A stretch of DNA of 64,000 nt from an uncultured bacterium (GCA_964607485.1 CAZSKP010000024.1:1-64000), one strand, 5' to 3'. Numbered from the stretch's first letter, positions 34,797 to 44,567 are shown. The notes: a model not told the origin generated them from the sequence alone. A program made the numbers and translations.

Positions 34797-34869
34797 GATA
34801 TAATGGAAAATCCGGGCAAGGTGCGGAATACGCACACCCGTGAGTCACACGCATCAACTCAGCAAGAAT

Positions 34870-34943
34870 GCGCCCGTAGCTCAGGCGGATAGAGCAGCGG
34901 TTTCCTAAACCGCGGGTCGGGAGTTCGAGTCTCCCCGGGCGCT
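34870..34943 (+). tRNA. tRNA-Arg(CCT), integration target
   Basis: Acceptor stem GCGCCCG/CGGGCGC, anticodon arm GCGGT-TT-CCT-AA-ACCGC and T-arm GGGAG-TTCGAGT-CTCCC. Confidence 0.95.
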
Positions 34944-34946
34944 CTC
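34899..34946 (+). repeat. attL, 48-bp direct repeat (3' half of tRNA-Arg)
   Basis: GGTTTCCTAAACCGCGGGTCGGGAGTTCGAGTCTCCCCGGGCGCTCTC, identical at 43733-43780. Confidence 0.95.
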
Positions 34947-34960
34947 ATTTTTTGCCCGTT

Positions 34961-36136
34961 TTATGGGCTTTGTTGAGCGCGCCGGAGTTCCTTCTTGAAG
35001 GGCAAAATGTTGGGTAGGGCAGTTGCTATGGCAGTTGTCGGCATGGCGTCCAGATATTCCGCCTGTCTTTCCGCAGCCTCTCTCAGGTCCGCCTCCGAGA
35101 CGATGTTGTAGCGGTCAAAGATCGACCGGGTCTTGTGGCCGGAAACCTGCATGGCCACGCGCTCCGGGATTCCCGCCCTGACCATGTTCCTGATAGCGGT
35201 CCGCCTGAAGTCGTGAAACAGCCGGTCGCCGACTCCCGCCTTCCTACAGGCCGTTCTCCAGGTTTTCCCGAACTGTTTTATGCGGTCGGTTCCGCGCTCG
35301 TTCTGAAAGACGAAAGCCCTCGGGTCGCCCTTACCGCGCCCGCACTCTCCCAAGAACAAATCTCTCAGAAGGTCGTAAAGCTCGTGGTCCAGCGCAAGCG
35401 TCCGGCCTTCGTCGTTTTTGCTCTTGCCCGGGCTCAGCGTAACCGTCCGTTGAATCAAATCAACGTGGTCCCAGGTGAGCGATGCGATCTCTTCCCGGCG
35501 CCAACCTGTGCGATAGGCGAACGTGACAAGTCCCCGTAGATATTCCGGGAGGGCGTTCCTGAGCGCCAGGAACTCATGATGCTCAAAGAACCCCGTCCGT
35601 GGGCTGCTCTCTCGAAGCATCGGAAAATGCGGGAGCCGGTCCACCTTCGGCGGCGTGCAGTTCCTGCCCAAGTTGAGCATTCTCTTGAGTGCGGCGAGCT
35701 CGCGGTTGATTGTGCTGTCCTTCACCTTCCTCTCGCCGTTCTTATCTCCCTGTTCGTGCCGTTCGCTCTGGCGAGCCTCGATGTAGGCCTTCAGGCGCAT
35801 CGTGTCGATTTTGCAGGCCCGGACCCCTTTGAAATGTCTCTTGAGGTTGGCCACGTGTTGACGGGCCCGCCGCGAGCTCTTCTTGTTCTTCATGTCTGCG
35901 AGGTAGAGCTCCGCGAGCTCCTCGAATGTCGTCTTGTCGAAGTAGTAGCCCGGGAGCCTGCCCTGAGCCACTTCCGCCTTGCGCTGAGTGAGAAGCTTCT
36001 GAGCGTCCGTCTTTCTCGTGCTCTTTGAGTTTTCCCGGATGCGCCGCCCCTCTGAGAAATAGACAATCCACCACGTCTGGCCTTCTCGATATTCGCCGGT
36101 TTTCCTGTCACGGTACTTCGGTTTGTACACTCCCAT
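34961..36136 (-). CDS. int: tyrosine recombinase / phage integrase
   Basis: Catalytic TGWRREE, K (SKNDEGR), FHDFRRT, GHKT...DRY; N-terminal arm-binding domain. Confidence 0.95.
   Translation of the reverse strand: MGVYKPKYRDRKTGEYREGQTWWIVYFSEGRRIRENSKSTRKTDAQKLLTQRKAEVAQGRLPGYYFDKTTFEELAELYLADMKNKKSSRRARQHVANLKRHFKGVRACKIDTMRLKAYIEARQSERHEQGDKNGERKVKDSTINRELAALKRMLNLGRNCTPPKVDRLPHFPMLRESSPRTGFFEHHEFLALRNALPEYLRGLVTFAYRTGWRREEIASLTWDHVDLIQRTVTLSPGKSKNDEGRTLALDHELYDLLRDLFLGECGRGKGDPRAFVFQNERGTDRIKQFGKTWRTACRKAGVGDRLFHDFRRTAIRNMVRAGIPERVAMQVSGHKTRSIFDRYNIVSEADLREAAERQAEYLDAMPTTAIATALPNILPFKKELRRAQQSP
35013..35036. repeat. putative integrase arm-type sites (tandem 12-mers) inside the 3' end of int
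   Basis: GGTAGGGCAGTT GCTATGGCAGTT; matching pair at 43590-43613. Confidence 0.6.
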
Positions 36137-36434
36137 GCTTTGATTTCCCCTCGCCGATTAACAGCGCCAACTCACCGGGCCTTCTTCGCCCGCTCGAGCG
36201 CAGGGCGACAAATCTCAGGATGTTGTCGAGCTCGTAGATAAACTTTTTGGAACTCAACCGCGAAGGTCTGAGGATATCGTTGATATCCGGGTCCGAGCGC
36301 CATTGCCGGAGCGTTTCTGTCGATACCCGAAGTAATGCGGCCGCCTCGCCCTGGTCCAAGAACCGTGGCAGCTCCTTCAGTTCCCTCTTGCTTGGCTTTC
36401 CTACGGCTCTCATTCCTTTCCTCGGAGTCCTCAT
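36108..36434 (-). CDS. excisionase-like winged-HTH protein
   Basis: FLDQGEAAALLRVSTETLRQWR (MerR/HTH_17-like); overlaps the int start. Confidence 0.7.
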   Translation of the reverse strand: MRTPRKGMRAVGKPSKRELKELPRFLDQGEAAALLRVSTETLRQWRSDPDINDILRPSRLSSKKFIYELDNILRFVALRSSGRRRPGELALLIGEGKSKHGSVQTEVP

Positions 36435-36446
36435 TCCATCACCCCC

Positions 36447-36749
36447 TCAGCACCAAAAGGGAAACTGCTCGCGAAATTTCTCCAGGTTGATCGGCCGGCC
36501 GGCGATGGTATCCGCGATCGCGCAGACACGGTAAAGGATTATCGCCGGAAAGTGCTCCCGGTCAAAAGCGAGTTTATACTCTGCTCTCTTTCCCCGTCCG
36601 ACCCGAAACAGTCCTTGTTGTTTCGGGTCCCATACGAGGTCCCCGGGCTTCACTTCCGCCGCCCTGTCCAGAATCAGTGCTGGCTGATTGTTGCCGTCCC
36701 CACTGACGTAGACGTAATCCAGCCGTCCGTCTCGTTGTTTCTTTTTCAT
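36447..36749 (-). CDS. hypothetical protein (first gene after the structured leader)
   Basis: 100-aa ORF with GGAGGG SD region, co-oriented with xis-int. Confidence 0.6.
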   Translation of the reverse strand: MKKKQRDGRLDYVYVSGDGNNQPALILDRAAEVKPGDLVWDPKQQGLFRVGRGKRAEYKLAFDREHFPAIILYRVCAIADTIAGRPINLEKFREQFPFWC

Positions 36750-36765
36750 CTCTCATCCCTCCATG

Positions 36766-36908
36766 AAAAAAGCCCGTTCGGGCGGGGATGGTGAGTCACG
36801 ATGTCGCGAGCGGCATACGTGAAACGCCCCGACAGAACGGGCAAAGGTTTCTGTTGGCCAAAAACAGAAAAGGCCGCGTCGCTTTCATCATCGTGACTCA
36901 CCGGGGAT
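36766..36908 (-). ncRNA. structured leader RNA resembling C4/CI-type antisense attenuators
   Basis: 14-bp perfect complementarity 36790-36803/36889-36902, 8-bp stem 36772-36779/36835-36842, and terminator GCCC-GAAC-GGGC-U6. Confidence 0.55.
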
Positions 36909-36938
36909 AGTGTAGCAGCCGGCGGGCAGCCCTGTCAA
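36909..36938 (-). promoter_or_regulatory. sigma-70 promoter for the leader-ORF-xis-int transcript
   Basis: TTGACA-18bp-TACACT on the minus strand. Confidence 0.6.
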
Positions 36939-37065
36939 GGGAAAAATGCAGCCGGACTCTAAAAATCCTTGTAGCATCCCAAGAAGCTCCAGGACGCCCT
37001 GAGAGAGGCAAAGGCGGTGTGAGCGGTATCATAGAGGTTCAGCTCCGGGTTCTCACAGGGAAGCC

Positions 37066-37449
37066 TCAGCCAGCGTGGTTGTCCGTTGGATTTGGAGGTC
37101 TCTCCAGGTCCTGCTCCGCCCGGTCAACATAGTCGGCGCACATGTCGCAGATTTTCCCGCCCATTATCCAAGCCGCCCCGGACGGCTTCTTCCCGAAGAC
37201 CTCCAGCACCGTTTCGGTAATCAGGTTCCAAAGGTCAGCTATCCCGGCGATGACTCTGCTTTGCGCCTTCTCTGCGGAATGCGCTTTCTTGGCGTACGTC
37301 TCGAGCTCGGAGAAATACCAATCCATGAGCGCTTCCACTTCTCCCCGGAGCTCCGCCTTTTCCTCTTTTGAGAGAGGATATCGAGGGAGATAGTCTCTTG
37401 CCAGCTCCTCCAGGGTGCGGCGAAACTTTTTCTTCGCTTTTCTGTTCAT
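37066..37449 (-). CDS. hypothetical helical protein coupled to the tape-measure gene
   Basis: ATG overlaps the TMP stop (ATGA); 127 aa starting MNRKAKKKFRRTLEEL. Confidence 0.6.
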   Translation of the reverse strand: MNRKAKKKFRRTLEELARDYLPRYPLSKEEKAELRGEVEALMDWYFSELETYAKKAHSAEKAQSRVIAGIADLWNLITETVLEVFGKKPSGAAWIMGGKICDMCADYVDRAEQDLERPPNPTDNHAG

Positions 37450-39212
37450 CTCAGGATGCCCCGCCGCCGGCCGCGTTCGATCGCAGGGAGGAACTCGTCG
37501 CGCATGAGCCGCCGCCATGACTGTTGTTGCTCCGGCGCCGTGCCCGGGAAATGGAAATGATTGACCATGCCCCCGCCGCCTGCCGCCGCCACGCTCAACT
37601 GGAGTGGCGAGACGTTCATGCTCGAGATGAACGCGTCGTACTCCCTGCGCATCGCCTTGAGGCCTGTCGTCCAGTTTTCCAGCGGGCTGGGGGACTTTCC
37701 CGTGAGCGGGTTCAGCCAATCGAATGCCTTCGCCGCTCCCGCGATGATTGCCCCGATGGTGCGATTCCACAAGTCTCTGATATAGTCCGTGAAGGACCTC
37801 CACAGGCCTTTCAGCCGCTCCCACGACGAGGAGAGGAAGTCCTTGATCTCGCCCCATCCGTCCATGAACGGCCAGTACACGTAATTCCAGAACCCGAGCT
37901 CTATCTCCGTCCACAGCCTGTCGAGCCCTTCCTTGATGTCCTCCCAGTAGATAATTGTGGTCGCGATGATGGTTCCCCACAGCGCGATCCCCGCCGCGAC
38001 CGCTGCAATGATGCCCGCTGTCGTGACGCCGATCGTTGCGACCACCGCTGCGAGCGTTGACACCACCACCAACGCCGGTCCGATGATGGCGACGATCCCC
38101 ACTATTGCAAGGACTATCGCCTGAACGTTGGGGGAGAGCTCTGTGAACCAGTCCACAACCTTCCCTATGTACTCGATCAACTTCTCCAGGCCCGGTTTCA
38201 TTTTGTCGAACATGTCCAAGAGCTTGTCGCCGAGCGGCTCCAGGGCCGACATGAGCCTGTTCTTCAGCTCCCTCATGCGCCGGGAGAAATTGTCCGTGTC
38301 CTCATAGGTCCGATTGATTGTCTCCTGGCTGTTCTTCAGAGAGTTCAGGAGCTCGTCTATCGCGAACCGCCCCTCGCGGATCGCCGCCGCCATGTCGGGC
38401 CCGGCCCGGGCGCCGAACATCTCCAGCGCTTTCGCGTTCGCCTCCCCGACGGAGCCGGCCCGCTCGATGTCCGTGAGAAGGTCTTTGAATGCCTGCGCCG
38501 GCTCGCCGCCCGCCTGGGCTATTTGCGTGAGCGCCTGGCGGAGGCCTCCGAGCACGAGCTCCGTGTTGACGCCTTCCTTCTCCCACTTTCCCATGAGCGC
38601 CGCCGCTTCCTCGAAGCTGTAGCCGACCTGTCTGAGCGGCGCGCCGTATTGAACGAGCTTGCGCGAGAGGTCCTCGACGGAGATTCCGGTCTGCTGGCTG
38701 ACTTTGTGCAGGTAGTCGAGCGCCCCGGCCTGGTCGTCGGTCGTGATGCTCCAGTCGCCGAACAGCCGTGTGACGGCCGCGATGAGGCTCTTCACGTTGC
38801 CGCCGCCGATCTCCTGCAGCTTGAGAAACTGTGAGGAGAGCTTCTGGAGCGGCTCGCCCGAGAGGCCGAGTCGGGTGTTCAGGTCCGCGATCGCCGTCGC
38901 CACGTCGTCCGTGATAGAGGGGAGCCTCGTGAAGACAGCCTTGAAATCTTCGTCCAACTTCTTCAGCGCCTCGCCCGTGGCGCCTGTGCCGGCGCGTATC
39001 TTGTTCATGGCCTGGTCAAACCTATCCGCGCTCGCGGCGGCCGCCGCGCCGATGCCGAGGATGGGGACGGTTAGCAGCGCCGAGAGCTTCGTGCCGACGT
39101 TCCGAAAATTCTGGCTCATCTTGTTCAGGTCTTTCTCGATTTGCTTCACGGCGCGCTGAAAGCCCGTCGTGTCCGCGCCGATGACGGTTATCAACGATCT
39201 GAGGGTTGCCAT
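37446..39212 (-). CDS. phage tail tape measure protein (TP901-like core), short at 588 aa
   Basis: N-terminal LITVIGADTTGF, core FDQAMNKIRAGTGATGEAL...GYSFEEAAALMGKWEKEG, TM segment, Trp-periodic repeats and SPSP motif. Confidence 0.85.
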   Translation of the reverse strand: MATLRSLITVIGADTTGFQRAVKQIEKDLNKMSQNFRNVGTKLSALLTVPILGIGAAAAASADRFDQAMNKIRAGTGATGEALKKLDEDFKAVFTRLPSITDDVATAIADLNTRLGLSGEPLQKLSSQFLKLQEIGGGNVKSLIAAVTRLFGDWSITTDDQAGALDYLHKVSQQTGISVEDLSRKLVQYGAPLRQVGYSFEEAAALMGKWEKEGVNTELVLGGLRQALTQIAQAGGEPAQAFKDLLTDIERAGSVGEANAKALEMFGARAGPDMAAAIREGRFAIDELLNSLKNSQETINRTYEDTDNFSRRMRELKNRLMSALEPLGDKLLDMFDKMKPGLEKLIEYIGKVVDWFTELSPNVQAIVLAIVGIVAIIGPALVVVSTLAAVVATIGVTTAGIIAAVAAGIALWGTIIATTIIYWEDIKEGLDRLWTEIELGFWNYVYWPFMDGWGEIKDFLSSSWERLKGLWRSFTDYIRDLWNRTIGAIIAGAAKAFDWLNPLTGKSPSPLENWTTGLKAMRREYDAFISSMNVSPLQLSVAAAGGGGMVNHFHFPGTAPEQQQSWRRLMRDEFLPAIERGRRRGILR

Positions 39213-39241
39213 CGCTTTTTTTCCTTAGTTCCCCGCAAGAT

Positions 39242-39301
39242 GCGGCGGCCGGGAAAGGAGGCCCCCTGCCTGATTGAGGGCGAAAACAGCCCGGCCGCCG
39301 C
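39242..39301. repeat. 12-bp perfect inverted repeat between the decoration-like and TMP genes
   Basis: GCGGCGGCCGGG (39242-39253) and CCCGGCCGCCGC (39290-39301). Confidence 0.8.
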
Positions 39302-39334
39302 GCCTGCGGTCAACGGAGGTTGTTGTGGACCCGG

Positions 39335-40036
39335 CTATATCGACGCGCTGGCTCCCACCTTTTGGGTGACGCCTTCCCGAGGATCCCCTCGAAGGAGCAT
39401 CGCCGATACGACCGAATTCGCTGTAGTCGTGACTTTGCACGCGATGTGAGTGAATCCGTTCTCATGGTCCAGGGCGTGGCCGTCGAGCTCGACGTAGGCC
39501 TGGGCCTTCGTGGTCGCGAGTGTGATCGTTCCCGCATTCTCCGTCTTGTCCGTCGTGATGACCGTGGCGCCCGGGTTCGTGCTCACCAACGTCACGAGAG
39601 TTCCGTTGGCCGACGCCGTGACACCCGGAGCGCCGTAGGTGGCGTGATTGACGCAGGTCACGAGCCCGGCCGCGTCGGCGAACTCACGGGCCGTTGCGTC
39701 CGTGGCCGCAGCCTTCGTGAAGTCGATTCCGTTGATGGTGACCACGTCGGTGTTGGCCACAGATGCGAGCTCCACGGTGGCCTCTGTCACCAGCGTATTC
39801 GCTGTCACCGTGGCCGAAGCGCTCGTGATAGCCTTCGCGTCTGTCGCCTCTGCGTCCTTTGCCTGGAGCAGCTCGATCTTCGTTGTCTTCGTCGCGGCCA
39901 TTGCGCCGCCGTTCAAGAGCGCCAACGCTTTGCGGAACGGGCGCATGTCGTAGTAAGGCCCCGTCGCGTTGGTGTTATTCAGGGCCTGTGAGACAAGCCC
40001 GATGTCCATCTTTGCACCTTCGTAGAGTTTCTGCAT
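39335..40036 (-). CDS. virion structural protein, probable capsid decoration/cement protein
   Basis: Directly after the MCP with AGGAGG SD; Thr/Ala-rich beta composition; inserted Ig-like segment DVVTINGIDFT...VTASANGTLVTL. Confidence 0.55.
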   Translation of the reverse strand: MQKLYEGAKMDIGLVSQALNNTNATGPYYDMRPFRKALALLNGGAMAATKTTKIELLQAKDAEATDAKAITSASATVTANTLVTEATVELASVANTDVVTINGIDFTKAAATDATAREFADAAGLVTCVNHATYGAPGVTASANGTLVTLVSTNPGATVITTDKTENAGTITLATTKAQAYVELDGHALDHENGFTHIACKVTTTANSVVSAMLLRGDPREGVTQKVGASASI

Positions 40037-40059
40037 TTTCAGACCTCCTGTCCCGGCAC

Positions 40060-41349
40060 CTATGCCGGGATGATTCCCGTGATAACGTTCAAGTGGGCCG
40101 GTCTCAGCACCGCCACGTCCACCCGGAGGTAGCCGCGGACCAGCACCTGCATCTTCTCAAACGTCTTCTCGTCGCCCGCCTTCGACACGTCCAATTGCAG
40201 CTGCGTCCGCATCCCGAACAGTAGGTTTTTGAAGCCTCCCATGAATGCGGAGCTCGCGTTGGTTGCCGAGCCCTGCGTCTGATCTATGGGCACCTGGTTG
40301 GTGACCAGCCGCTTGAGCGCGAGAAAATCGTCCGGAGGCTTGAGAGGTGTGTTGTCGCTAGTAATTCCGGTTTTCAAGCCGGCCAGGGCGCGCTTGGTCC
40401 GCGGCGCGTAGATGACCGCGGTAGCCTCCCCGTTGCTCGTCTCGATGTCCTCTATGGCGTCCAGGAACGGGTCGTAGTTTGTGAAGGCGGCGCCGTTCGT
40501 GCCCATCGAAACGGAGCCGACGCCGTCAGTGTTCCAAATGCCGCGAGGCTCTCCGACGCCCGAGCCGAGAAGACCGACGCGGTCAACCTCGAGCGCGAGA
40601 GCCGAGGCGATCATCTCTTCAAGTGTCCCGGTGAAGGATTGCACGTCCTCGATGAGCTGCAGCGAGACCCGGCAGAGGCAGGCGACGGCTACCGCGACCA
40701 GCTTGATCGGTGTGAACGTGGCGTCCGACTCGGTGATCTCTTCGTTTTCGGCGACCCAGTACGGCGTCGGCTCGGTGACCACCTTCGCGATCGTGACTTC
40801 CGGGGTCTCCATCGGCAGGGTCAGTGCCCCCGCCTGGACGCACCGCGCCTTGTTACGCGCCAGGTCGATGATGGTCCCGCTCAAGGTCGTCGGAAGCAGC
40901 ACCCCGCCCAGGGCGCCCGTGCCTTCTCCCATAGCCCGCCGCTCTGCCTCGGCCCCTTTCCAATCCTTCAGGACAAGTCCGCGAAACGCCCGGCCCAGGT
41001 TGAGCTCACTGGGAAGGATTCCATCGGGCAGGTCGCTCCGGACGAAATCTATCATCCGCTCTTCGGGCCTGAGCAGCCAGCGCCTGTCTCTATCCTCCAA
41101 GCCGTGAGAGCCGGCGCCGTCAATGATACGGCTGCCTATGTCGGTCCGCTGCGAGAGCGCGTCAACCGAATTGAGCCGGGTGGCGTCATCGAGGCGCTGC
41201 TTCAAGTCGCCCACCTCTTCCTCCAATGTGTCGAACTCCCTGCGTTCCGCCGCCGTGAGCGTGCGGTTCTCCTTCTCTGCCGCTTCTCGGATTGCCTTCA
41301 TTCGCGCGATCTTTTCCTCGCGCTGCTTCATCAATTCTCGTAGGTCCAT
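40060..41349 (-). CDS. HK97-fold major capsid protein with N-terminal coiled-coil delta (scaffold) domain
   Basis: Charged coiled-coil N-terminus, GGVLLP...IIDLAR, WVAENEEITES...F, VSLQLIED, GSGVGEPRGI and C-terminal RVDVAVLRP. Confidence 0.9.
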   Translation of the reverse strand: MDLRELMKQREEKIARMKAIREAAEKENRTLTAAERREFDTLEEEVGDLKQRLDDATRLNSVDALSQRTDIGSRIIDGAGSHGLEDRDRRWLLRPEERMIDFVRSDLPDGILPSELNLGRAFRGLVLKDWKGAEAERRAMGEGTGALGGVLLPTTLSGTIIDLARNKARCVQAGALTLPMETPEVTIAKVVTEPTPYWVAENEEITESDATFTPIKLVAVAVACLCRVSLQLIEDVQSFTGTLEEMIASALALEVDRVGLLGSGVGEPRGIWNTDGVGSVSMGTNGAAFTNYDPFLDAIEDIETSNGEATAVIYAPRTKRALAGLKTGITSDNTPLKPPDDFLALKRLVTNQVPIDQTQGSATNASSAFMGGFKNLLFGMRTQLQLDVSKAGDEKTFEKMQVLVRGYLRVDVAVLRPAHLNVITGIIPA

Positions 41350-41421
41350 TTCTTGTTTCCTTTCCTCTTTTTTTCCGTTCCGGTTGCGCGGGCAGAGGAG
41401 CGATCCCGCTCCGCGTTGTGG

Positions 41422-41712
41422 TCATCCGACCAGGGACGCACCCTGTTCTCTTGCACGTTTCGCTTTTCGCCGATCTCTCCATCGGCGGTGTTGGGCTTTG
41501 ACGTTTCCCTTCCGGCCTCGGCGTGGTGAGACACCCTGCCGATCAGTCCAACATTCATGAGAGCAGAACCGTCGCTTTTCCTGATAGAGCGGAACGCTGT
41601 AGGACCGGCCGCACTGTTCGCATATCTTTGTCAGGCGACGGCCATTGAACCGCAGACGGTCCGGTTCCCTCGATTGATGCCGCCAACGGCAACCCATCAT
41701 TTTCTTCTCCAT
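41422..41712 (-). CDS. small basic C4 zinc-finger protein
   Basis: CEQCGRSY...RRFCSHEC motif. Confidence 0.55.
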   Translation of the reverse strand: MEKKMMGCRWRHQSREPDRLRFNGRRLTKICEQCGRSYSVPLYQEKRRFCSHECWTDRQGVSPRRGRKGNVKAQHRRWRDRRKAKRAREQGASLVG

Positions 41713-41840
41713 TTGCAGACGTATGCAAAGTCAAACCTCGCCCAGGGGGGGGCTATTGCAATTTCGCGGCATCTTGCGGAAGCCTGCCATACCGGTTTCA
41801 GAGCTCAGAGGCTCCAGTGATTTTCTGCCCCCTCCCCTTG

Positions 41841-42476
41841 TCACGTCGGAACCTCCGACAATCTCTCCACTTCGCCTTCCGCTTCGGCCAACTGCCTCAC
41901 CGTTTCTTGATAGCCGCGGTTCGATTCAGGGGCGCCCAGGTGCCGGAGTGTCTCGAGAGAGCGTTTCAGGCGCGCCACCTTTTCCTGCGGTTTTTCTTCT
42001 TCGGCGGTTGACCCGCCCTGAGTTCCCTTCCGAGTTAAATTAGGAGTTAGGGGCCCACCGGCTAGCCCCCCGGTTCGTGCATCCCTTAGCCCCCCGCTAC
42101 CTCTCCGTTGTACCCCCGCACGCGGACGCGGAGGTCTATCGGTTGTATCCCCGCCTACACCTTGCGGGGGGCTACTGCCTGCACCCCCGCTCGCATGAGT
42201 CCATTGAATGATGATGTGATAGCCGCCCAGTCTCCGGGGACGTGGATAGCGCTCGATGATTCCCAAGGTTTCGAGTTCCCGCACCGCTTTGTGGTAAGAT
42301 GCCTTGTGCTTGATTCCGGCCTCTGTCTGCAAGGTTCTGGCACTTGGGAAACACTCGTTGCTCTCCCGATTCATGAAGACGCCGATCGCAATGAGGAGCC
42401 TGAGCGTGGCCGGCCTCTGTATCTCGGGGAGTCTTTCGACAACAAACGACGGGAGCACAGAGGTACCTCTGTCCAT
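41841..42476 (-). CDS. phage replication-initiator-like protein (N-terminal winged HTH)
   Basis: CFPSARTLQTEAG...KAVRELETLGIIER...Y (HTH_36-like), followed by a low-complexity linker encoded by GC repeats. Confidence 0.65.
   Translation of the reverse strand: MDRGTSVLPSFVVERLPEIQRPATLRLLIAIGVFMNRESNECFPSARTLQTEAGIKHKASYHKAVRELETLGIIERYPRPRRLGGYHIIIQWTHASGGAGSSPPQGVGGDTTDRPPRPRAGVQRRGSGGLRDARTGGLAGGPLTPNLTRKGTQGGSTAEEEKPQEKVARLKRSLETLRHLGAPESNRGYQETVRQLAEAEGEVERLSEVPT
42063..42190. repeat. iteron-like repeats inside the rep gene
   Basis: TAGCCCCCCG, TAGCCCCCCGC, TGTACCCCCGC, TGTATCCCCGC, inverted GCGGGGGGCTA and TGCACCCCCGC. Confidence 0.55.
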
Positions 42477-42667
42477 TACCTGCCTCTCTTCGGCTGCCGC
42501 TGCTTCCGAGGAACATACACGGCAGACCCGAGCTCCACGTTGTCGTGGCGTATGATGATCTTAGTCGACGTCGTCACGACGACGGTCTCTCCCGCCTCCA
42601 AAACTCTTTCTATGAAGCGAAAGTCTTCCTCCGCCTCCGTCAATTCTTTCCCCCCCTCCTCACGCAT
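42476..42667 (-). CDS. small hypothetical protein
   Basis: 63-aa ORF abutting the rep start and overlapping the upstream HTH gene. Confidence 0.45.
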   Translation of the reverse strand: MREEGGKELTEAEEDFRFIERVLEAGETVVVTTSTKIIIRHDNVELGSAVYVPRKQRQPKRGR

Positions 42668-42864
42668 CGGTCTATGAAATCCTGGAGGTCCTCATTTCGG
42701 ACGTACTGCTTCCGTGAGCCCGGGAACACCACTACGGGAAGATGCCCGCTCCACACGTGCTTGCGGAGCGATCGCAGCGGGCAGCCTATGAGCGCCGCCG
42801 CCTCCGCGAGCGTGTAGCAGAAGCGCTTTCTAGGCTCTGGACTCTCCTTCAACTCGTCGGTCAT
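42640..42864 (-). CDS. HTH_17/excisionase-type DNA-binding protein (AlpA/Xis-like)
   Basis: YTLAEAAALIGCPLRSLRKHVWSGHLP...VRNEDLQDFI; ATGA overlap with the upstream gene. Confidence 0.75.
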   Translation of the reverse strand: MTDELKESPEPRKRFCYTLAEAAALIGCPLRSLRKHVWSGHLPVVVFPGSRKQYVRNEDLQDFIDRCVRRGGKN

Positions 42865-43436
42865 CTATCTGTGGCCATTTTCAAGATTGTTATGAGGATT
42901 GGACCCCATTGCTCTCTGAGTTTCATCCGCCGGGCCGGTTCCTCAAATTTCTTCTTTTCCTCTTCTGCCAGCCACGCCGACTGGTTCGGCCCATACACCT
43001 TCTCAGCTTCCCTCCAGAGGGTTGAATCTACTCCGTAGAGCTCCTCTTCCAAGTCCAGCTTTAGACGGAGCCATTTTAAAGCCGCGAAGGCAACCAGATC
43101 CTGGTTCTTCACAAGCCTCTTGAGAGTTCGGTCATTTTGGAGCGATTCTTCGTCCAGCGCGATATCCGGTCTTTCCAGATGTTTTGCGATCGCTCTCGCC
43201 CTTGCGACGCCTTCCGCAGAGAGTCCGTCCTCGTTCAACAAACGAAAAGACGCCCCCACCTCCGCCGCCATATTGAAGGGATAGCTTGCTTCCATTGCAC
43301 GTCCGCCGCCTTTGCGAACCTGACGCGGCGCCAACCCCTTTTTCCAGTAATTCCGTAGTGTGGCCGGGCCTATTTCTATCGGGTGCTTCAGCGACTTGAG
43401 CTCCTTGAGTACCTCGCTTAGGGCTTTCTGGCTCAT
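42861..43436 (-). CDS. MerR-like HTH regulator (probable element repressor)
   Basis: IGPATLRNYWKKGLAP...GGG...Y; AGGAGG SD and a consensus promoter upstream. Confidence 0.6.
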   Translation of the reverse strand: MSQKALSEVLKELKSLKHPIEIGPATLRNYWKKGLAPRQVRKGGGRAMEASYPFNMAAEVGASFRLLNEDGLSAEGVARARAIAKHLERPDIALDEESLQNDRTLKRLVKNQDLVAFAALKWLRLKLDLEEELYGVDSTLWREAEKVYGPNQSAWLAEEEKKKFEEPARRMKLREQWGPILITILKMATDR

Positions 43437-43477
43437 TGGCTCCTCCTTCAGAAAACTATCAATCTATCTTTCATAGT

Positions 43478-43506
43478 ATTATACAATCGAGTCTTCATTC
43501 TGTCAA
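43478..43506 (-). promoter_or_regulatory. perfect-consensus sigma-70 promoter driving the element's main operon
   Basis: TTGACA-17bp-TATAAT on the minus strand. Confidence 0.8.
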
Positions 43507-43589
43507 GTCCTCGCTACTGCCAGCGGGTGAGAACAACAGCACGTCGCCCGGGCGCCATGGCTCAAATAAGAGCGAATCCCAAGTCTTTT

Positions 43590-43613
43590 GCTAGGGCAGT
43601 TGGTAGGGCACGA
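43590..43613. repeat. putative integrase arm-type sites near attR
   Basis: GCTAGGGCAGTT GGTAGGGCACGA, same orientation as 35013-35036. Confidence 0.6.
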
Positions 43614-43688
43614 AGCGGAGAACACAAGCGGAAAAAAGGCTGTCAAATCAGGTCACAAGAGGACACATACAAGAAATCTTATAAAGGA

Positions 43689-43717
43689 TTGCAAACCCTT
43701 GACACGTCGTATATAAT
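43689..43717 (+). promoter_or_regulatory. element-borne promoter firing outward through attR
   Basis: TTGCAA-17bp-TATAAT. Confidence 0.55.
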
Positions 43718-43732
43718 GAGACCCGCGGTTCA

Positions 43733-43780
43733 GGTTTCCTAAACCGCGGGTCGGGAGTTCGAGTCTCCCCGGGCGCTCTC
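43733..43780 (+). repeat. attR, 48-bp direct repeat (displaced tRNA-Arg 3' half)
   Basis: Identical to 34899-34946. Confidence 0.95.
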
Positions 43781-43823
43781 GTTTTTTCCGGCCTTGGAGC
43801 TCAGGCACGGATGCGCAGGCGTT

Positions 43824-43852
43824 TTGACTATTTAGTGTCCTCGTGGTATAAT
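43824..43852 (+). promoter_or_regulatory. sigma-70 promoter of the PHP-lipoprotein-TPR genes
   Basis: TTGACT-17bp-TATAAT with extended TG. Confidence 0.65.
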
Positions 43853-43880
43853 CACCCCAAGGAATTGTGGTGTGCCCCCG

Positions 43881-44567
43881 ATGCAATCGGAAAAATCGCT
43901 TGTTGACCTTCATATGCACACGCTGCTGAGCGATGGCGAACTTCTGCCGTCGGAACTGGTGCAGCGGTGTGTTGCCGCCGGCTATGGAGCCATGGCGCTG
44001 ACCGACCACGCCGACTCGTCGAACCTGGAGCCCCTCGTGAAGGCGGCGTGCAGGGTGGCGGAGGACTTCAACTCGAAAGGCGATTCTCCCATATGCGTCG
44101 TGCCCGGAGTGGAACTGACCCACGTCATCCCGGGGATGATCGCTGAGCTGACGGAGCGGGCTCGCTCGTTGGGAGCGCGCGTGGTCGTCGTCCACGGCGA
44201 GACCATCTCGGAACCGGTGCCCAAGGGGACCAACCGGGCCGCGATAGAGGCGGGCGTCGAAATCCTCGCGCATCCGGGTCTCATCACGACGGAGGAAGTC
44301 GAGCTTGCCCTCAAGCACGGGGTCGCTCTTGAGATCACCACGAGGAGAGCGCACGCGATGACGAATGGACACGTGGCCCTGCTGGCTCGCGAGGTGGGTG
44401 TGCCGATGGTGTTGAACTCGGACGCGCATTCGCCCGGAGATATTTTGAATCCGGATTTGAGGGAGCGCACGATATTGGGAGCAGGGCTCGAGCCAGGCTT
44501 CCTTGAGAAGCTGGCCGACAATTCACGCAAGCTCGTTCACAGGCTCATGGGCAAGGTCATAAGCTGA
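43881..44567 (+). CDS. PHP-domain phosphoesterase (histidinol-phosphatase-domain family)
   Basis: DLHMHTLLSDG, TDHAD, GVELTH, VHGET, LAHPG and NSDAH. Confidence 0.88.
   Translation: MQSEKSLVDLHMHTLLSDGELLPSELVQRCVAAGYGAMALTDHADSSNLEPLVKAACRVAEDFNSKGDSPICVVPGVELTHVIPGMIAELTERARSLGARVVVVHGETISEPVPKGTNRAAIEAGVEILAHPGLITTEEVELALKHGVALEITTRRAHAMTNGHVALLAREVGVPMVLNSDAHSPGDILNPDLRERTILGAGLEPGFLEKLADNSRKLVHRLMGKVIS

Follow-up and report, generated by a model that had tools for sequence, protein, structure and literature searches.

The stretch of DNA analysed here, called the window below, comprises 64,000 nucleotides from an uncultured sediment bacterium (GCA_964607485.1 CAZSKP010000024.1:1-64000) whose phylum counts 11 species genomes in the collection searched. 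It harbors an island of ~8.83 kb (34954-43787), bounded by 55-nt direct repeats, in which all the recognisable genes lie on the minus strand. The present work concerns the minus-strand leader of ~137 nt, from about 36902 to a run of six U residues (U6) at 36766, which precedes the island genes ORF100, xis and int. This leader can adopt two mutually exclusive folds involving the hairpin next to U6, and both of the long helices concerned depart from chance. The parts of the leader and the genes behind it, all on the minus strand, are listed in the order in which a transcript would meet them.

36909-36938: sigma-70-like promoter (TTGACA 36938-36933, 18-nt spacer, TACACT 36914-36909, TG preceding the -10 hexamer)
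36889-36902: P1 5' arm (X), a 14-mer at the predicted RNA 5' end and the proposed antiterminator ('preemptor')
36873-36882: P1b 5' strand, paired with 36814-36806 in the minimum free energy (MFE) structure
36848-36870: P2 hairpin, 8-bp stem with 100% complementary arms and a 7-nt loop
36827-36842: T 5' arm, which in the P1 state folds locally as a 4-bp hairpin
36790-36814: P1b 3' strand plus X', which in the T state lies within the apical part of the terminator hairpin
36790-36803: P1 3' arm (X'), perfect 14/14 complement of 36902-36889
36772-36787: T 3' arm, whose last 12 nt (36783-36772) can alternatively form the 4-bp hairpin GCCC-GAAC-GGGC
36766-36771: U6 tract, directly 3' of both alternative hairpins
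36757-36762: Shine-Dalgarno (SD) sequence GGAGGG of ORF100, 4 nt past U6
36447-36749: ORF100, the first gene behind the leader, 100 codons, ATG at 36749, of a rare family
36108-36434: xis-like gene encoding a small helix-turn-helix (HTH) protein of 108 aa
34961-36136: int, encoding a tyrosine integrase and overlapping xis by 29 nt

Organization of the leader

Most of these parts had been described in an initial annotation of the locus. The promoter, the perfect complementarity of the two 14-mers, the hairpin at 36848-36870 with its 8-bp arms and the GCCC-GAAC-GGGC hairpin with U6 ahead of the SD sequence (36783-36766) were all recovered in their places, and the further partial pairing announced next to the 14-mer corresponds to 36882-36873 with 36814-36806. 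This extension (GCGA-C-GCGGC / GCCGCUCGC) adds 9 further pairs to P1 past an asymmetric internal loop, and the P1+P1b stem closes three hairpins, the largest being 36870-36848. Helix T joins 36842-36827 with 36787-36772 (14/16 paired), and a 6-nt linker separates X' from the GCCC-GAAC-GGGC hairpin. The promoter-like site at 36938-36909 agrees with the consensus at 10/12 positions; six promoter-like sites occur in 34800-44000 vs 2.0 +/- 1.5 in shuffles. Judging from the spacing, transcription is predicted to start at about G36902, 7 bases past the -10 hexamer, which is the first base of P1. Between the stop of the upstream operon (37066) and the leader, no other terminator-like site was found.

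The SD sequence of ORF100 is predicted to be accessible (unpaired probability 0.87-0.99). Its masking by the CAUCCCC linker was considered and rejected, the pairing probability being 0.02-0.04, or 0.11 with the upstream copy. An 11-nt direct repeat (10/11; CAC-U/C-AUCCCCG on the minus strand) is located at 36902-36912 and 36783-36793, at the outer end of each P1 arm; the first copy overlaps with the -10 hexamer, the second with the linker and the end of the 3' arm. Two short open reading frames (ORFs) also run through the leader on the minus strand. The first has 31 codons, from an ATG at 36891 within the 14-mer to a TGA at 36797-36795 within the P1 3' arm, and GGUGA at the predicted RNA 5' end is a possible SD sequence for it. 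The second has 51 codons (36746-36901), starts with GTG at 36901 and ends in a TGA which overlaps the ATG of ORF100 (ATGA).

Two mutually exclusive folds

When each helix was forced in turn, the predicted energy of the leader was -68.2 kcal/mol with P1 and -53.9 kcal/mol with T. The pairing probability of P1 was 0.996 for RNAs with 5' ends at 37080, 37000, 36960, 36930 and 36903, and dropped to 0.973 from 36900 and to 0.724 from 36895. In an RNA starting at 36888, from which the 14-mer is missing, the probability of T was 0.996 and that of the 4-bp hairpin 0.001. Removal of the 14-mer turns the P1/T pairing probabilities from 0.996/0.0 into 0/0.996. Folding of successive prefixes revealed that the P1 domain is complete by the prefix ending at 36788, ahead of the synthesis of the T 3' arm (36787-36772). 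As only 2 nt separate X' and the T 3' arm, a pseudoknot holding full P1 and full T together should be sterically excluded, considering H-type geometry.

The T hairpin and the 4-bp hairpin share the end C36772 next to U6, and their energies in isolation are -33.7 and -5.9 kcal/mol, respectively. Because T ends at the same base before U6, it should itself terminate transcription, far better than the 4-bp hairpin. The initial annotation had treated the stem 36842-36827/36787-36772 as an alternative to the terminator. The stem is present, but the role of mere alternative does not hold since T abuts U6 itself with much the stronger hairpin. A helix abutting the U-tract cannot be an antiterminator; the polarity first proposed is therefore reversed and the 14-mer would be the antiterminator. 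Since P1 forms first in transcription and is 14 kcal/mol more stable, read-through should be the default. In the host genome, 507 of the 1621 runs of at least six T have an abutting hairpin, and 34.5% of these 507 sites are at -5.9 kcal/mol or weaker, 205 at -10 kcal/mol or below and 4 at -30 kcal/mol or below, in a distribution which has no ground truth for termination. The leader also displays the generic features of an attenuator, namely a stable hairpin and a U-tract between a promoter-like site and the first gene, and an alternative helix (P1) which excludes the predicted terminator (T). As the structured leader has two exclusive folds involving the U-tract hairpin, an RNA-level gate on the excision module appears to be the most economical reading.

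The structure of the leader is real and non-random, and this holds for both helices individually. The MFE of -68.5 kcal/mol compares with -51.05 +/- 4.04 kcal/mol in 200 dinucleotide shuffles (z -4.32), none of which (0/200) was as good. A 14/14 complement of the P1 5' arm was found in 0/5000 dinucleotide shuffles of the partner region, the best result being 12, reached once, and a 14/16 complement of the T 3' arm abutting U6 likewise appeared in 0/5000 dinucleotide shuffles, where 13 was the best and was reached three times. In the 4.7-Mb genome, 48 perfect inverted repeats reach 14 nt or more at a gap of 3-150 nt, and the gap is 30 nt or more in 22 of them. Such long perfect repeats come mostly from repeat families; the P1 repeat is single-copy.

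Relatives of the leader and of the neighboring genes

A DNA search with the leader returned itself only in its own genome, and among 61 genomes including the host genome (G000) it returned only G000. The search of the phylum's 11 genomes with xis also gave only G000, and ORF100 and xis retrieved only themselves from a word-indexed set of 5.8 billion proteins. In the IMG/VR viral contigs, nothing was found with the two-arm pattern, xis, int or the ORF100 alignment, and the capsid of the island gave one 38% match (L006), in a locus with a serine recombinase and a different layout. The JGI metagenome contigs were blank for the two-arm pattern. In phage records, blastn with the leader and tblastn with xis were blank or at the level of chance, and in 80 loci carrying related integrases, neither tblastn nor blastn detected ORF100, xis, the leader or other cargo. 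Three other DNA runs of the same study yielded identical low-depth fragments only, and over the four runs compared no variant of the leader, no empty site and no circle joint were detected.

An exhaustive HMMER search with ORF100 revealed 3 distant relatives in 1.84 billion representatives (P0125, P0126 and the repeat protein P0127). One relative of 101 aa has 33% identity over the full length and one of 63 aa has 63% identity in the C-terminal part. The closest two, P0125 and P0126, share the C-terminal motif of ORF100, A-[IV]-ADT..G.P......F....PFW. Two weak partial matches of ORF100 in genome contigs of unrelated phyla were judged spurious.

Leaders of related integrases

A search with the integrase gave over 5500 relatives at E<=1e-20, of which the best is 57% identical, and 80 metagenome loci with related integrases were compared. 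The 58/80 loci with at least 700 nt upstream of int were scanned for terminator-like hairpins, and such hairpins were found directly before an SD sequence, three of them homologous. A covariance model built from these 3 members (R1) found 4 more with E values of 2e-10 to 5e-7, bringing this leader, called here the Y-leader, to 7/80 loci (L016:2406-2556, L021:505-648, L023:1072-1214, L011:2838-2979, L020:2159-2302, L027:1518-1653 and L029:1359-1494). A second model (R2) added two doubtful rows only, L035:1-64 and L038:2770-2897 (E 0.24 and 0.42). The Y-leader begins with an A-rich 5' part, followed by a closing stem round two hairpins, a U-run, an SD sequence and then the start of either a small ORF or int itself. 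In its alignment, which is model-fitted and hence biased towards structure, 97.1% of the cells pair vs 26-54% in slid controls, both sides change in 17/25 pairs, and 0/500 shuffles reach any of five measures. Rfam gave no match at the places of the Y-leaders.

In 6/7 members, a 5' segment (X) forms a covarying, uninterrupted helix of 7-10 bp with the loop of hairpin 2 (X'), and its sequence is different in each. In the seventh, inspection of the alignment showed X:X' interrupted by a mismatch, the uninterrupted helix being 4 bp only. Cross-combinations of X and X' between members are mostly shorter. The observed length was reached by 4 to 101/2000 shuffles of X for the six members and by 1998/2000 for the seventh. 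An open frame runs from a conserved AUGA across the structure, without an SD sequence, in L016, L021, L023, L011 and L027, all five that were read; in L020 the conserved AUG is absent and a later AUG is present.

The Rfam family int-alpA (RF02996) was found directly before int and above its gathering score in 2/20 loci (L010:2903-2968, 44.9 bits; L023:1697-1760, 44.2 bits), and a further occurrence at L016:2904-2969 (32.2 bits) was below that score. In L023 and L016, int-alpA and the Y-leader occur together, one of them ahead of the small ORF and the other ahead of int.

The island and its genes

The boundaries of the island and the promoter-like site at the head of its genes are as follows.

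34870-34944: tRNA-Arg(CCT)
34899-34953, plus strand: attL, a 55-nt direct repeat in the 3' part of tRNA-Arg(CCT)
43733-43787, plus strand: attR, the second copy of the 55-nt repeat (98%)
43478-43506, minus strand: promoter-like site, sigma-70 12/12 (TTGACA, 17 nt, TATAAT), just inside attR and ahead of the island gene row

Behind the 43506-43478 site follow a 191-aa ORF, an HTH_36 replication-initiator-like gene, a 96-aa HNH-like ORF, an HK97-type capsid gene (429 aa), a 233-aa ORF, a 588-aa tape-measure-like gene and a 127-aa ORF ending at 37066, and the 317-nt spacer which holds the leader separates this last ORF from ORF100. No divergent repressor gene was recognised beside the 43478-43506 promoter-like site, and no portal, terminase, protease or tail tube was recognised among the island genes. 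This gene set is unusual for a satellite or a remnant prophage. The Pfam matches of the xis-like protein, to MerR (E 8e-4) and HTH_17 (E 3e-3), stay under the cut-off, and in PHROGs it matches phrog_66, 'excisionase and transcriptional regulator' (E 7e-6). ORF100 has no match in Pfam or PHROGs and no usable match in the protein atlas. The integrase has one partial paralogue only within the genome.

Relation to the C4 and CI antisense RNAs

The initial annotation had placed the leader close to the C4 and CI RNAs of phage P1 and satellite P4 and had recommended an Infernal search with the Rfam models C4, c4-2 and c4-a1b1. The window was analysed with cmscan against all 4227 families of Rfam 15. 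At the gathering score, the whole window gave 4 tRNAs only. At E<=10, the region 36400-37400 gave only GlsR4 (14.5 bits) and sR60 (12.7 bits), which are junk snoRNA rows; no C4-type match was obtained at this threshold, and ARAGORN found no tRNA-like gene at the leader site.

The layout of the complementary sites is also different. In P4 CI immunity, the small RNA has a segment, seqB, for which the leader offers two complementary sites, seqA upstream and seqC downstream, and only one such partner exists here. For C4, PMC5320573 describes three stem-loops, an RNase P cut to ~77 nt and loops a' and b' which pair with two sites, one of them at the ribosome-binding site. In the leader, the two-loop, two-target layout of C4 is replaced by one contiguous 14-nt pair, which is the closing stem of the MFE structure, and no pair lies at the ribosome-binding site. 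At up to 3 mismatches, the 14-mer has 8 matches in the 64 kb vs 6.0 expected, the two perfect ones being the arms themselves, and no further copy near the island genes or leaders. Exact complements of at least 9 nt elsewhere in the island number 4 vs 4.56 in shuffles. Analysis with RNAduplex of the leader against the island transcripts gave -60.5 vs -63.2 +/- 2.9 in shuffles for those upstream and -56.5 vs -56.6 +/- 3.4 for those downstream.

Kinship with C4 and CI was thus not borne out by Rfam, by the single complementary pair or by the search for further targets, and membership of the C4/CI family is not supported. The wider proposal of an RNA switch gating excision keeps its basis in the non-random leader and the two exclusive folds and loses the C4/P4 arrangement of complementary sites. 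The leader is most likely a new form of terminator/antiterminator control, of a design akin to that of leaders preceding integrases of the same family.

Proposed control of excision and alternative explanations

We tentatively favour a cis-acting antiterminator/terminator leader which would read through by default and stop when the 14-mer is masked, a plausible reading although short of a probable one. It builds on the sequences, their non-randomness, the calculated energies and the mutual exclusion of the two folds, all of which are observed. The leader would set how much transcription reaches the ORF100-xis-int genes of the 8.8-kb tRNA-Arg island. In the P1 state, the 5'-terminal 14-mer and the 9-bp P1b would pair with the apical region of the terminator. 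The T 5' arm would be locked within a four-way junction, leaving just a 4-bp hairpin before U6, so that most polymerases would continue. In the T state, 36842-36827/36787-36772 would close the apical hairpin to give a 71-nt hairpin of -33.7 kcal/mol followed by U6, a strong intrinsic terminator located 4 nt ahead of the ribosome-binding site. If the 14-mer were occupied while the next ~90 nt are synthesised, the leader would flip to T and xis and int would be switched off. Candidates for the masking are an antisense RNA, which might be an already terminated leader RNA carrying the complement in its apical region, a protein, or a ribosome on the short ORF starting within the 14-mer. By analogy, the 7/80 related-integrase loci with a covarying leader in the same part order and the 2/20 scanned loci with an int-alpA RNA directly before int may be counted in favour of this reading.

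Several points weigh against it. The reading presupposes a transcription start at the predicted site, termination by T but little of it at the 4-bp hairpin, and the action of some masking factor; the weakness of the 4-bp terminator would follow from general knowledge and from the genome-wide energy distribution. No relative of the leader was found in any DNA search. Default read-through from a near-consensus promoter means constant xis expression unless the promoter is repressed or a masking factor is present, and neither a repressor nor a masking factor was found. The promoter scan gave no plus-strand site from which a countertranscript could be made, and no trans target rose above chance within the island. 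ORF100 itself contains a promoter-like site at 36565-36538 on the minus strand (TTGACC, 16 nt, GATAAT; 10/12), which lies ~100 nt ahead of the xis start and could express xis and int independently of the leader. Finally, in a looser test of T, in which the 14-mer was removed and the upstream 105 nt were shuffled (n=500), some long-range helix displaced the 4-bp hairpin in 133/500 shuffles, and the result was only marginal: a closed-domain energy of -33.7 kcal/mol or below occurred in 29/500 shuffles and the observed MFE was reached in 10/500.

A self-titrating form of the switch is conceivable, although we consider it quite unlikely. The terminated transcript, a stable hairpin RNA of ~77-137 nt, would expose the complement of the 14-mer, pair in trans with nascent leaders whose own partner is not yet synthesised and force the terminator fold. 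If true, this would be a protein-free bistable lock on excision with a logic like that of P4 CI in an unrelated sequence and fold, in a capsid-encoding mini-island of a scarcely sampled phylum, and, together with the Y-leader family and int-alpA, would point to a wider unrecognised class of X/X' terminator leaders gating integrase modules.

Among the other explanations, the best surviving one, which we still regard as unlikely, is a fixed and unregulated leader. Here P1 would protect the 5' end and shape the mRNA, the hairpin and U6 would insulate the excision module, with some leakage, from the long operon upstream, and control would be exerted by repression of the promoter or by a polymerase which a loaded protein makes resistant to termination, in the manner of Q or AlpA. 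The domination of the ensemble by P1, for every 5' end that contains it, means that switching is not needed to account for the fold, and terminator-like leaders directly before an SD sequence and a start recur in the related integrase loci. A precedent exists in P. aeruginosa, where AlpA binds a promoter element and polymerase then passes the downstream intrinsic terminator, as given in PMC7969949 and PMC9371919. The gene behind ORF100 encodes a small HTH protein of the Xis/AlpA kind, but this 108-aa protein reaches the Pfam HTH families below the cut-offs only. Moreover, a fixed leader leaves unexplained both the non-random helix T (0/5000 shuffles) and the fact that the T 3' arm ends exactly at U6.

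The model of the initial annotation, in which a small RNA derived from the leader (about 36842-36766) would act in trans on the nascent 14-mer and cause premature termination like P4 CI or P1 C4, as a switch for immunity or induction, appears improbable. It is in agreement with a predicted T-state fold which leaves a part of the complement, 36796-36788, unpaired, so that a terminated RNA could seed the pairing with the 14-mer, and the leader flips to the terminator precisely when the 14-mer is masked. The island is also small and phage-like, with capsid, tape-measure-like, replication initiator, int and xis genes within 8.8 kb. On the other side stand the absence of a C4-type Rfam match at E<=10 and the single complementary pair, with neither a second target nor a target at the ribosome-binding site. 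In addition, the cis partner follows after 85 nt, in a composite stem of 23 bp, and a trans-acting RNA would therefore need to be both abundant and fast.

It is very unlikely that the leader is a stand-alone small RNA (sRNA) gene of ~137 nt with a short terminator, acting on targets of the host or of a helper phage and leaving ORF100 to be expressed by leakage. Such a gene is suggested by the succession of a promoter, a 5' end held in a long stem, a four-way junction, a single-stranded linker and a GC hairpin with U6, and the analogous int-alpA is typed 'Gene; sRNA' in Rfam. However, the SD sequence of ORF100 begins 4 nt past U6, which leaves no space for another promoter, the terminator in this state has just 4 bp, and target complementarity, in a search confined to the island, was at chance level. 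A DNA-level element, in which a repressor or a recombination directionality factor would bind the 14-mers as operators or the inverted repeat would extrude to form a cruciform or a single-strand origin, is highly improbable: each 14-mer does hold a 9-bp near-palindrome GTGA-N-TCAC, one copy of which overlaps the promoter +1, and the 11-nt direct repeat (10/11) flanks both arms, but the complementarity runs past the palindromes through an asymmetric internal loop into 9 bp more, as is typical of an RNA stem, the arm centres are 99 bp apart (~9.4 helical turns), the 9-mer is not enriched (12 window matches at up to 1 mismatch vs 11.0 expected) and the ending of T at U6 is left unexplained.

Comparison with known systems

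The silencing and triggering of excision in small integrated elements are known for few model phages and satellites. If the cis-acting antiterminator/terminator reading is true, an RNA fold alone would gate xis and int, by means of a 5'-terminal antiterminator set against a long terminator. The order of parts seen in the leader recurs, together with covariation, ahead of related integrases in many sediment metagenomes, beside int-alpA; it offers a testable hypothesis for integrase leaders, and the leader itself offers a compact two-state RNA part which could be tested in vitro with few mutants.

The outcome of P4 CI action is premature termination. The P1/P7 C4 and P4 CI RNAs resemble the present case in that the RNA comes from the leader of the operon which it controls and in the complementarity between leader segments. 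C4 is unlike it in having three stem-loops and two loop:site pairs, according to PMC5320573, where the leader has one contiguous pair closing a junction. Antitermination by Q and AlpA shares with it a promoter followed within ~130 nt by an intrinsic terminator, before the regulated genes; as set out in PMC9371919, however, it needs a DNA-binding element at the promoter and a sigma-dependent pause rather than an alternative RNA fold.

The int-alpA RNA, like the leader, is located directly upstream of integrase genes or genes of the xis/alpA type. Its model consensus has a closing stem round internal hairpins followed by a U-run and an SD sequence. The leader differs from it by a length twice as great, a four-way junction and a second, competing helix. 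The consensus stem of int-alpA encloses two hairpins; the predicted T state of the leader has a closing stem round one hairpin, then U6 and SD, and the P1 junction is not followed by a U-run. The int-alpA model gave no row at E<=10 in 36400-37400 (gathering score 35.8 bits), and its best score genome-wide was 23.3 bits on another contig (C6:31245-31319). To our knowledge, the function of int-alpA is untested.

In the attenuation systems of pT181, pIP501 and pAMbeta1, a 5' preemptor blocks a downstream terminator and an RNA which masks the preemptor restores termination. This logic is the same as that proposed for P1 vs T. In those plasmids, unlike here, where no plus-strand promoter-like site was found, the antisense RNA is made from the opposite strand, and the genes controlled are those of replication instead of xis and int.

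The Y-leader lies at the corresponding place, ahead of int or of the small ORF-int module in the loci of related integrases. It shares with the leader the order X, closing 5' strand, X' inside the stem, closing 3' strand, U-run, SD sequence and start; in the window this order reads X, AUGAAA, the 5' strand of the stem abutting the U-run, X' inside, the 3' strand, U6 and SD. In L021, the core of X has the same seven letters as a part of the 14-mer of the window. The Y-leader models gave no match to the window with default filters (R1 at E<=10, R2 at E<=5); with the filters off, a score of 0.6 bits (E 4.3) was obtained, the closing stem of the model being placed on the outer part of T. The two also differ in geometry: in the Y-leader, ~12 nt separate the closing strand from X', which is part of a hairpin loop, and X:X' can coexist with the stem as a pseudoknot, whereas in the window X:X' has 14+9 bp, is 2 nt from the T 3' arm and is mutually exclusive with T. 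The relation between the leader of the window and the Y-leader is accordingly best described as an architectural analogy and not as membership of one family.

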